From Octopus vulgaris (Eukaryota): 64,000 nucleotides of DNA. Below, piece after piece: positions 52,412 through 63,341 of this stretch. Position 1 is the first letter of the stretch. The number at the start of each line of letters is the position of its first letter. A program made the translations under genes and the position numbers. The stretch covers positions 129,394,001-129,458,000 of the forward strand of contig OX597817.1 of the NCBI GenBank assembly GCA_951406725.2, in the 5' to 3' direction. The notes beneath the pieces were generated by a model. That model saw nothing but the letters and a program-made list of their open reading frames with translations, did not search any database and was not told the DNA's origin.

Positions 52412-52471
52412 ATTCTTACGAAAATTTTCATAGGAAGATGCATGATTTTGGAGGTGATGACACATCTGAAG
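52412..52471 (+). CDS. Microexon A (60 nt, phase 1-1) of an acidic repeat-protein gene: (D)SYENFHRKMHDFGGDDTSE
   Basis: T13-CAG acceptor, GAAG|GTAATG donor, length a multiple of 3, open frame, homologous to four downstream exons. Confidence 0.7.
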
Positions 52472-54080
52472 GTAATGATGGTTAAATCTCGACATATTAC
52501 ATTTCCTGCTAAACTAACATAGCTAGAAAAAGCCTCTCAAATGACAGAACTGTTAGAGTATCAGAAAAAATATTATTTGCAGCATTTCTTTCACATATTT
52601 ACGACGTACGTTCATCGTCGTTTTATTCCGTTTGCTCGGGGCAAAATATATAAACCGGATCTGTCGCTATTCTCATTATCTCCTCATCTTCTCTCCGAAG
52701 GTGTGCGTCATATGATTTGATCTTAGCACAGAAAAGGTTTGCGAGTTGGGTTGCTTGCATAAATTTCCCTGAATGGCGTCTAACGAAAGCAACTAAAAGA
52801 AAACTTCGAAGTTTTTGTGAGCATATTTCTCGCAAAAATACGTTCAATAATCTACCGAAAGCTATTTTGTAATCCTTCACTTAATATTGATTATTTCATT
52901 TTATTATATAAGTGTACATATATGTGTACATGCTTGTATGTGTGTATGTATGTATGTATGTATGTATGTATGTATGTGTATCTTAAACTAATATGTTAGG
53001 GGTAACCAGATTTGAAGTTACGAAGTTACTTAAATAATGATTGTTGTTACCTAACCAATGTGTAAGTATATATGGTTTTGTACATATAGGTATGATCGCG
53101 GGTGGATGTACGGATGTATGTTTTTATTACACATATAAGCACGCAGGTGCGTGCTTGGATTTGTGTATATGTATATGCGAATATTCATTCATGGGTAGAT
53201 ATAAATATGGGTTTTATTTGTACGTATGAGTGCGCAGATATATATTTAAAAATATATATATATATGTGTGTGTGCGAAAGTTCCCTGACACAGTATAGGA
53301 AAGTGTATTAATATTTATGCGTATATACGGATGTGCGTGTGCGTGTGTGTGTTAATGTTAGACACTATGTGTTAATGCTGCCTGTACTGATATGTCTATA
53401 AGCAATACGATGACAGAAATGCACTCTCCAATTTATTGTAGAGATGTGTCGGGGTGTATTCATATGTGTGTACATGTGTGTGTGAATCTCTGTGTGGATG
53501 TATGGGTTTAGAGTTAGATGTGGATGTGTATATTTTGCTTGTACGGTGTGGTGGAGGTCGGGCGGTTCTCAATTGACCAACTGTGAGGAAGATAATGATA
53601 ATTTTAAATTCAAATCCAATAGTATATTTGTGCCATAAGGAAAATTATTAACTGGAACACGGACATACATATATTCTGCTCTGGATCATAATGTAAGAGT
53701 TATTAATAATATTATGAATGATAACAATGATAACATTAATTGTATTGACAACGATAATGATACTAACTTTAATGACACTTTGGAAACTATTATGAAGTAA
53801 TATAATGTACTATTGACTATGTATATTTACATCTAAGTATTAATTTGTGTATGTTTATTATCACAATATTAAGTCGAAAAACTGAGACATTGGGTGTGGA
53901 ACACATATATATGTTTACTAATTTATATTATTTATTTATATCATTATGTATATGTAAATTTTATTTTATATGTATAGGAGTGTGAGTATATACACTCATA
54001 TGTATATATATATATGGTGTATTGTGGGTACGCACCCACACCCATGTGGATATATGTGTAGACTGTGTTATATCATATAC

Positions 54081-54205
54081 TCTCCGAAGAGGCCTTGTGA
54101 TATTTTTGTTAATGTCTCATTTATATCTATATATTGACCAACCATAAAGGGCTAATATTGGTAAAATGAGACATAATTATCGACATGGCCGAAACAGCTG
54201 TAAGA
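54081..54205 (+). ncRNA. Variant hammerhead-like motif with ~100-nt stem II
   Basis: TCT-CCGAAGA-GGCC..(ATGTCTCATTT/AAATGAGACAT)..GGCC-GAAA-C-AGCT-G-TA-AGA. U4 is replaced by C. Confidence 0.5.
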
Positions 54206-55677
54206 TCTAATGTATACTTATATTTATATTTACTTGTATTTATATTCTTTTATATATATATTCTAATTATTATACAACATTACTCTTTTATGTACACTTT
54301 TTTATGTACATTCCTTTATGTACACTGATTTGTTCTGCTTTTTACATTTAACCCTACAGTCTCTTATGTGGTGGTTTAATAAAGTATCTGATTGAGTATT
54401 ATCTGGTAATTGATATTTTATTTAGTTGTATTTCTCCATTTTCTTATCTTGTATTAGTAATTTGTGGTAAATCATTTTACCTTTGCCCATATAATACAGT
54501 AAATGAAGTGATTGCATCGTAATCATTAACATTTATGTATTAACTTTGTTGGGTACTTCACTATCAGTATATTGGATATACGTTATCCCATAGAGGGTTG
54601 CATTTACAACCCCTATCTCAATTTGTATATATATATATATATGTGTGTGTGTGTGTGTGTGTGTGAGTGTGAATACAGACAATACATACTATATACGAGA
54701 TCAAAATAAGCAACTAGGATATCCAAAGGTAATGCAGTACGATCGTTTAAAACAACTTCATTTAATTGAACAATGCAATCATTACATCAATTTAAATGCA
54801 GAGAAATCCTCAGCTGTATAAAGACATAGAGTTTAATTAAATTAATACAGATTGACATATTAGTATGATTTTAACTAAAATCTCCAAGAAGGTAAGGACA
54901 TGGTCTTCATTTCAGCTTAGAAACTACTAAGGTATTAGGAAGAACGACTTTTACAGATTTTGCTTGTCACTGTTTTATGAGGTCAGTTTTAATTTATAGA
55001 CTAGAACCAACGATCTCGCAATCGTGAGTGCAGCACCCTAACCAGAAAGCCATATCTATATAAACTGTGGTAAGAAGCTCGCTTCCAGCACCATGGTCTC
55101 GGGCTCGGTTCCACTGCGTTGCATCTCAGGCATGTCTGTTCTACTATAGCCTCGGTCCAACCAAAGCCTTGTAAATGGGTTTGGTAGACGGAAAGTGAAA
55201 GAAGCCCGTTGTATATATATATATATATATATATATATATATACACATATATATATATGTATATATATATATATATGTATATATATATATATATATATAT
55301 ATATATATATATATATATATATATATATATATATACCTCAGTGTGTGTGTCTGTGTTTGTATTTGTTTCCCATCACCGATTTAAAACCGGTATTGGTGTG
55401 TTGGAAACTTAGCGGTTCAACCCAAGAGGCTGATAGAATAAGAACTGGGGTTTAAAAATATCTTTGTTCGACGAAAACCCTCCAATGCGGTCCTCCTGCA
55501 TGACCGCAATCAAATGACTGAAATAAATGAAAGAATAAAAGTATAAAAGAATGTGTGTGTGTGAGTGTGTGTGTATGTGTACATAACCATATACATACAT
55601 ACACACACACACACACACACACACACACACAACACACATATATATATATATATATATATATATATATATATATATAA

Positions 55678-61689: not shown

Positions 61690-63040
61690 TTTAGAGATGA
61701 GGAATTATGTACATTATTTATATTTTACGGATATTTGTTCTCTTGTTTATTGTTAACACAACATTTCGGCTGATATACCCTCCACCTTCATCAGGTGTCT
61801 TGGGGAAATTTCGACCCTAGGTTCCTATTCCTAAGGTATTTTTTGATGTTGTTGGTTATTGTTGTTGTTGTTGTTATTATTATTATTATTATTATTCTTA
61901 TTCTTCTTATTATTATTGAGGTCACTACCTTGAATCCAACTCGGAATCTTGGGTTTAGTAGGCTGGGCTCTTAACCACTACGCCATATGCCCGTGGGCAT
62001 TTAGGGTGTGAATTTTAGGGCTTAGAAGGTTGTTGTGTCCTAGCATATGTGCTGCTTCCTTTAATTTTCGTATTTTCCAGTGGTGTTCTCTGTCTATTAT
62101 TTAAACTTCATCCTACAGAAGGAGTTGGTCTCCATTTTTCCATATATGATCAGCTATACTCGATTTATCAATATCTCCTCGTGTCATAACATTGCGTTGT
62201 TCCTCTACCCTTATATTGAGGGGCTGGTATGTTTCACCTTTGTATAGCCTACCAAAGCTACATGGGGTGGAGTACACGCATTTTTTGGTCATATTCTCTT
62301 CTATTGGTGGTTTTATTCGAAGGAGATTCAAGACATCCGTATATCGCAAGCCGAACTTCACCGGACGATACCTCAACTTCTATTCTCACCATCCATACAG
62401 TGTCTAGTGAGGGATTGCTCAGTACCTAAAATATCGAGCAAAGAATATATAAGTAGCGATAGTGATACCCACTACGAAGAAATGATGAAGCTCAGTAACA
62501 ATTTATTCAGCAACAATTACTCCAAAAATATACTATCCACTCAAATTATGAAGAAAAGAGAGGATGAAACCAATAAACTATCCAGTCTGACTACCCTATG
62601 TGAAAAGCCTCTCCGAAAAGATACAAAAGATATGCGGCCCATATGACATCAGGACAGAATTCAAGAGTATTACAACACTTCGCAAATATCTCCTTCGAGT
62701 AAAACCACCAATCGAAGAGAAGATGACCAGAGAACACCACTAGAAAATACGAAAACTAAAAGAAACAGGACATATGCTATGGCACAACAACCTCCTAAGC
62801 AGACCGAGTGCAGATATGAATAGCATAAGGGAACCGGTATTAAGGAAGGATAGGGAAATATTAGATATATAAGCCCTAAAGTTCACTCCATAATTGCCCG
62901 CGGGTATATGGCGTAGTGGTCAAAAGCGCAGGCTACTACCCCAGGATTCCGAGTTTAATTCCAGGTAATGACCTGAATAATAATAATAATAATAACAACA
63001 ACAACGAAAAATATCCTGGAGGGTATATCAGCCGAAAAAA
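61690..63040. mobile_element. Penelope-like element as two inverted partial copies
   Basis: Minus: CVYSTPCSFGRLYKGET..SIADHIW (GIY-YIG). Plus: FKTSVYRKPNFTGRYLNFYSHHP (RT thumb). 61920-62095 is inverted relative to 62728-62975. Confidence 0.85.
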
Positions 63041-63275
63041 ATAATGTATGTATATATATATATATATATATATATATATATATATATATATATATATATT
63101 TATGTGTGTGTTTGTGTGTGTGTGTGTGTGTAAGTATATATATATATACATATATTTATATATCTACATGCACTCACACACACGCAAACACACACACACG
63201 CACACACACACATATTTATATCTGAATGGAGTTTTGTTCAACATACAGCCAAATATGTTTTTACATTTTATTCAG

Positions 63276-63341
63276 AGTCCTCTGAAAATCCTCATAGGAA
63301 TATGCACATGTTTAATAATAGAGATGATGACTCATCTGAAG
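63276..63341 (+). CDS. Microexon A' (66 nt, phase 1-1): (E)SSENPHRNMHMFNNRDDDSSE
   Basis: TTTTACATTTTATTCAG acceptor, GAAG|GTAATG donor, frame-preserving indels relative to exons A and B. Confidence 0.7.

Follow-up and report, generated by a model that had tools for sequence, protein, structure and literature searches.

A tandem array of small phase-1 exons at one Octopus vulgaris locus, very probably the unannotated 5' half of a gene for an acidic, S-x-E-rich protein

Introduction

In a 64,000-nucleotide stretch of Octopus vulgaris DNA (contig OX597817.1, positions 129,394,001 to 129,458,000; the whole stretch is referred to as the window), five short segments between 52412 and 63341 are bordered like small exons. 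The preliminary description, made from the letters alone, read them as homologous exons of an acidic protein in which SSEESSE clusters are rebuilt across the splice junctions, and compared them with the small duplicated exons of vertebrate SCPP genes. The locus therefore raises the question of whether these segments are exons of a real gene and, if so, what kind of protein that gene encodes. Our analysis indicates that the segments are very probably real coding exons, and that the array to which they belong is very probably the unannotated 5' half of one orphan octopus small-exon gene. Coordinates past 64000 continue the window numbering, and adding 129394000 gives the contig position. The genome searched comprised 2.8 Gb.

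Results

Extent and origin of the exon array

The positions of the five segments, their lengths of 60, 51, 51, 51 and 66 nucleotides (nt), the CAG before and the GTAATG after each of them, and their open phase-1 frame after splicing were all reproduced. For these three exon types, the second frame of the spliced sequence contains many stops and the third frame is also open. The + strand of the window contains the sequence GAAGGTAATG five times, the - strand not at all. The segments are thus present as first described, but they are not independent of each other, because the window holds three distinct exon types (A, B and C) and the three type-B copies, exons 2-4, are identical and lie within tandem duplications of 1.6-1.7 kb with approximately 94-95% identity. 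The number of exons also had to be revised. The array runs beyond the window and consists of 15 phase-1/1 exons of 51, 60 or 66 nt from 52412 to 89422: one A followed by three B, five C-B pairs and a final C. It very probably makes up only the front of a gene that spans at least 117 kb, and the exons farther downstream lack this richness in SSEE.

Genome searches placed all 15 matches of exon A with its flanks, and all 6 protein-level matches of exon C, at this locus. Outside the locus the genome matches were confined to intronic flanks, and the exons occurred at no other site. Because the exon matches are restricted to a single locus, the alternative that the preliminary description had set against itself in advance, that of a dispersed repeat or transposon, fails.

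The C+B units are 5.17-5.25 kb long; four of them are 98.9-99.5% identical and the fifth approximately 95%. Across the units the differences amount to 0.5-5%, with shared variants and unequal intron lengths, and the splice sites and the frame are kept in all 15 exon copies. The indels that distinguish types A, B and C, of 6 and 15 nt, keep the frame, and the aligned upstream intron of A and C has non-triplet gaps. Two decayed transposon pieces recur in the introns (Table 1): one, putatively mariner-like by its motifs, was copied into the intron before 7 of the 8 type-B exons, with a 3' piece before the eighth, and the other, putatively Penelope-like by one motif, precedes each of the 6 type-C exons as an intronic copy. 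The transposon pieces were duplicated along with the array units, and the array grew by tandem duplication of exon-plus-intron units.

The public gene model and the downstream exons

A profile of the three exon frames led to one protein among 59 candidates, CAI9721792.1 (UniRef A0AA36F281), which is a hypothetical protein of 307 amino acids (aa) from Octopus vulgaris. By exact letter match it is composed of the 3'-terminal 34 nt of array exon 13, array exon 15 and 14 downstream exons, and every one of its introns is in phase 1. CAI9721792.1 and the array belong to the same gene, although the model lacks array exons 1-12 and 14, and hence all five window exons, as well as 11 predicted exons, a signal peptide and a functional label. 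Within its own span it skips exon 14 and seven candidate exons, as a result of either exon skipping or model error. Its first codon is an internal Met, exon 14 is passed over, and its last acceptor is weak and has no pyrimidine tract; the model is therefore probably incomplete at both ends.

The 11 further phase-1/1 exons were predicted from splice scans and picked by hand, and one of them is a clear paralogue of a second duplicated set in the same gene. This set consists of five 42-nt phase-1 exons (157536-165555); it is more diverged than the acidic array, and its first copy is not in CAI9721792.1. Three small predicted exons (189570-194189) carry two cysteines each, six in total, and possibly encode a small C-terminal module held together by disulfide bonds. 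The second of the three (191884) is single-copy in the genome, and a Pfam search of two of the three returned no match. Counting the 11 predictions, there are 39 internal exons in the gene, spread over 142 kb, all 39 of them multiples of 3 and all but two no longer than 66 nt. Several candidate acceptors for a terminal exon follow 194189. An exon-like segment for a hydrophobic helix at 242534-242609 (+) was not adopted as a transmembrane exon, being unlinked and 48 kb past the last predicted exon. On the opposite strand, a 446-codon, Ala-rich open frame (105016-106353, -) lies inside an intron of the gene and is probably a transposon remnant.

Exon character and constraint

The lengths of the 27 distinct exons are without exception divisible by 3, and AG/GT ends are present in the 24 non-array exons and likewise in the array exons. 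Stop codons occur in none of the 27 in phase 1, in 12 in phase 0 and in 23 in phase 2, counts that are not independent of exon choice, as the exons were partly picked for an open phase-1 frame. A generic splice-site scan was also performed, in which each good acceptor was paired with the first good donor lying 18-70 nt beyond it, with no condition on the reading frame. On the + strand of 90-195 kb, 23 of 27 candidates were multiples of 3 and all 23 were open in phase 1, compared with 8 multiples of 3 and 4 open in phase 1 among the 34 candidates from five control region-strands; these counts exclude the array itself (7/12 on the + strand, 7/7 on the - strand), and the thresholds and region limits were set after the locus had been seen.

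The exons vary less than their surroundings. The eight type-B copies had no variable column in 51, against 58 in 531 flank columns (Fisher p=0.004), and the six type-C copies had 2 in 66 against 18 in 119 (p=0.007). Together with the phase bias in the scan and the fact that the public model splices from the array, this supports the real exon character proposed in the preliminary description. Judged from the sequence, the pattern of constraint fits real exons of a fast-evolving, presumably disordered protein under concerted evolution, and it does not in itself prove selection at the protein level. A search of sequencing runs listed no RNA data set containing this sequence. Four runs guessed to be RNA, of unspecified tissue, were mapped to 49730-55200 and gave zero depth in the bin that contains exon 1 (52292-52474) and no joint at the ends of exon 1. 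These blanks are evidence neither way; the four runs had been ranked on small shares, probably of repeat words.

Predicted product and the search for a signal peptide

The spliced array would encode 287 aa with a net charge of -81 and an isoelectric point of 4.05, composed of 23% Ser, 18% Asp, 15% Glu (D+E 33%), 14% Asn and 8% His (22 residues). S-x-E, the motif expected for Fam20C-type kinases, occurs 43 times against a shuffle mean of 10, and none of 2000 shuffles reached 43, a contrast that overstates independence because one motif was copied many times. In the predicted peptide all 14 splice junctions create such a cluster, 13 of them SSEESSE and one its Thr variant, in agreement with the S-x-E richness and the rebuilt clusters proposed at the outset. 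CK2-type sites (S/T-x-x-D/E) number 14 in the array, equal to the number of junctions. The downstream part, 368 aa with the predicted exons, is rich in Ala, Thr, Ser and Asn and only slightly acidic; it contains 2 S-x-E motifs and 9 sequons. The whole predicted protein comes to approximately 520-660 aa, missing ends not counted. The Atlas structure model of CAI9721792.1 (predicted local distance difference test 0.41; predicted template-modelling score 0.18) is of low confidence, which is consistent with a disordered chain.

The presence of a Fam20-family kinase in the genome was confirmed, as exons with Fam20C-family matches above the Pfam cut-off lie at two loci; these matches do not tell Fam20B from Fam20C. 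No protein homologue outside O. vulgaris was found in word-indexed searches or in a full HMMER search with a 30-residue query. One further protein match is apparently unrelated, having aligned largely through an intron-derived part of the query. In CAI9721792.1 neither SPARC nor any other Pfam domain passed the cut-off, and the Atlas gave no feature match and TM scores of at most 0.30; the power of all these searches is reduced by low complexity and by the shortness of the queries. No paper naming CAI9721792.1 or A0AA36F281 was found among the accessible sources, with most subscription journals and one skin-mucus proteome supplement beyond reach.

Exon 1 is preceded, at a distance of 2.7 kb, by an assembly gap (Table 1) that may hide the gene start and a signal-peptide exon. 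A signal-exon candidate at 51559-51660 was rejected because its core contains charged residues and dispersed repeats surround it. At contig position 129382889, 63 kb upstream and across the gap, a single-copy hydrophobic open reading frame of 15 codons runs from ATG to a strong phase-1 donor; such frames occur at chance frequency, and this one is a possible signal-peptide exon that we treat as a lead only.

Other features of the window

A long interspersed nuclear element (LINE) copy at 19375-22227 (-) has its endonuclease and reverse transcriptase in separate long open reading frames (Pfam RVT_1, E=2.7e-25), and a second LINE fragment with a reverse transcriptase match lies at 37101-38854 (+). 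Between them, at 34175-35296, a GC-rich stretch derived from trinucleotides has long open frames on both strands, of which the + frame is rich in Ala, Thr and Val; it had no Pfam match.

Table 1. Positions of the array, the remaining exons of the gene and associated elements (window numbering, continued past 64000)
Feature	Position	Strand	Remarks
Assembly gap	49630..49729		Run of 100 N
Array exon 1	52412..52471	+	Type A, 60 nt, phase 1/1; earliest recognisable exon, most divergent copy
Array exon 2	56154..56204	+	Type B, 51 nt, phase 1/1
Array exon 3	57732..57782	+	Type B, sequence equal to exon 2
Decayed DNA-transposon-like element	58404..59215		In introns before type-B exons
Array exon 4	59465..59515	+	Type B, sequence equal to exon 2
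Decayed retroelement-like fragment	62080..62860		In introns before type-C exons
Array exon 5	63276..63341	+	Type C, 66 nt, phase 1/1; opens the 5.2-kb C+B higher-order units
Intron after exon 5	63342..64000	+	Extends off the window edge
Array exons 6-15	Starts 64932, 68449, 70118, 73690, 75346, 78874, 80505, 84108, 85773, 89357	+	Beyond the window
Internal exons of CAI9721792.1 (13)	102657 to 169393	+	Phase 1/1, 30-150 nt each
Terminal exon of CAI9721792.1	169668 to 169795	+	Public model
Further predicted exons (11)	130060, 134193, 135655, 140048, 140495, 147075, 157536, 177704, 189570, 191884, 194166	+	Phase 1/1; splice scans, hand-picked

Discussion

Comparison with known systems

The vertebrate SCPP proteins (caseins, osteopontin, DMP1), together with elasmobranch scpp and the acidic N-terminus of Sparc-L, resemble the octopus array in having D/E-rich and S-x-E-rich regions of low complexity and duplicated small exons or motifs (PMC9122587). 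The array shows this likeness with 33% D+E and 43 S-x-E in 287 aa, and its density of 15 S-x-E per 100 aa is approximately three times the maximum of 5.1 per 100 aa given in one survey for Sparc-L and Scpp proteins (PMC9122587). SCPP introns, however, are mostly in phase 0, and the genes derive from 5' exons of sparc-L with a conserved signal peptide (PMC9122587), whereas the internal exons of the octopus gene are all phase 1/1 and belong to a mollusc; no SPARC or other Pfam domain was found in CAI9721792.1, and the gene has no known link to sparc-L. On intron phase the array is thus not an SCPP, as the preliminary description had already argued. If secreted, the predicted protein probably works like an acidic SCPP without belonging to that family.

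Zebrafish Starmaker is an acidic, Asp-rich protein of 613 aa with phosphorylated Ser and Thr and internal repeats, which acts in the otolith and the egg envelope; its exon 7 is reached by approximately residue 76, and its exons are therefore small (PMC8812434). No sequence homology with the predicted octopus protein was found. The micro-exon genes (MEGs) of Schistosoma share the organization of the gene: small symmetric exons account for most of the coding region and can be skipped in frame (PMC4015677). MEGs differ in being small secreted proteins of the host interface that are varied by exon skipping, whereas most exons of the octopus gene are 30-66 nt long, many are tandem duplicates of one acidic motif, and the introns measure approximately 1 to more than 10 kb. 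By analogy, Starmaker would be the closest functional counterpart and the schistosome MEGs the closest architectural one, neither being homologous on present evidence. A neuropeptide precursor was set aside, as the B and C repeats contain no dibasic or amidation sites, and a reflectin likewise, as no reflectin motif was found.

A model for the gene and its product

The gene is likely to be octopus-specific, with about 30-40 small phase-1 exons, and there is a high probability that all 15 array exons are spliced. Secretion of the array protein and its phosphorylation by Fam20C we hold to be rather probable, and the reading as a secreted Fam20C-type phosphoprotein that binds calcium or calcium mineral, in non-skeletal matrices as well, is narrowly favoured. 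In such a disordered protein a Fam20C-type kinase would phosphorylate the acidic front half, giving up to 43 phosphoserines that, next to Asp, Glu and His, would form a dense polyanion able to sequester Ca2+ and to control nucleation, or inhibit precipitation, in an extracellular matrix or a gland fluid. Candidate tissues are the statolith, the stylet, the egg envelope and a gland. In pearl oyster, Fam20C acts in shell formation and its knockdown disturbs the shell crystals (PMC5824888). Because all introns are in phase 1 and all exons are multiples of 3, repeats can be gained or lost with no break in the frame; unequal crossing-over would add or remove whole repeats, and each new junction, if spliced, would rebuild an SSEESSE cluster with three S-x-E sites. 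A tentative extension of this model is that the octopus independently evolved a mineral-controlling phosphoprotein of the Starmaker or SCPP kind, for the statolith or another calcified or egg-coat structure, with a phosphate load tuned by exon copy number in an array that is still expanding; taken as a whole this is doubtful, and a role in the statolith or a similar mineral specifically is unlikely.

Several observations weigh against these proposals. The seven minus-strand candidates inside the array passed the splice scan as well, although they are probably one chance site multiplied by duplication. Over the whole 5.2-kb units the difference between exon (2/117 variable) and intron (195/3828) is not significant (p=0.06), and the quiet block reaches into the introns, as gene conversion would also produce. 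The two variable sites of the type-C exons both alter the encoded residue, and differences within the 42-nt set are not concentrated at third positions (34, 30 and 26 at codon positions 3, 1 and 2). CAI9721792.1, labelled hypothetical and with the internal start, the skipped exon and the weak last acceptor described above, may be largely an ab initio product; the reference annotation of O. vulgaris, the pipeline of which is assumed to apply to it, combined RNA-seq, Iso-Seq and protein alignments with ab initio predictors (PMC10700109). In the 152 kb upstream, signal-peptide exons were not above chance (3 candidates on the + strand and 5 on the - strand), and outside the array N-glycosylation sequons were not enriched (9 vs 5.7 expected, p=0.09).

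Alternative explanations

The product may enter the secretory pathway and have no part in mineral, as a luminal or granule buffer of calcium or another metal, presumably in the manner of granin or HRC, or as a mucin-like matrix or cell-surface glycoprotein in which the acidic, His-rich array is a polyanionic spacer in front of a small C-terminal module that contains cysteines. Mineralised tissue is scarce in octopuses, and the 22 His residues of the array, the Ala/Thr/Ser/Asn-rich downstream half with its sequons and the six cysteines of three predicted exons would suit such a protein. The S-x-E density, so far above that of Sparc-L and Scpp proteins (PMC9122587), argues against it, as does the lack of a convincing transmembrane exon, the sole candidate being the distant segment at 242534, and we consider this explanation rather unlikely. 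An intracellular product of real exons, an acidic disordered CK2 substrate which we would liken to Treacle or Nopp140, is quite improbable. It would account for the failure to find a signal peptide and for a number of CK2-type sites that equals that of the junctions, but S-x-E outnumbers these sites by 43 to 14, the array has no alternating basic blocks, six clustered cysteines are predicted at the 3' end, and no homologue was found, though nucleolar proteins of this kind are usually traceable.

The remaining explanation concerns the exons themselves. If the gene starts near exon 13, or if the locus is decaying, then exons 1-12 would be unspliced or non-coding duplicates whose copy number is partly an artefact of assembly. 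The composition of CAI9721792.1, which leaves out exons 1-12 and 14, is what this predicts, and the near-identity of the central 5.2-kb units and the lack of a codon-level signal of selection point the same way. Non-coding copies would not be expected to retain intact splice sites and frame in 15 of 15 cases, nor to differ in type by 6- and 15-nt indels that keep the frame when the upstream intron of A and C has gaps that do not. An assembly artefact, in turn, agrees poorly with units that have diverged by up to 5%, share variants and differ in intron length. A last point against this explanation is that three runs of unstated kind with three organism labels contain 0.26-0.51 of the words of 52300-60000, partly transposon words. 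On balance we regard this explanation as improbable, and the array as very probably the coding front half of the gene.

Significance

The locus illustrates how orphan small-exon genes are truncated by standard annotation, and should the protein have no role in mineral, what is left is a corrected gene model, itself of modest interest. Statoliths serve for ageing animals and matter for studies of acidification. The matrix proteins of cephalopod statoliths are little characterised (PMC6597576), and the locus offers one specific candidate that can be searched for by its unique peptides and junctions. Among invertebrates, the octopus gene would stand as a clear parallel to the SCPP style of building phosphoproteins, with a different intron phase and a far higher S-x-E density.

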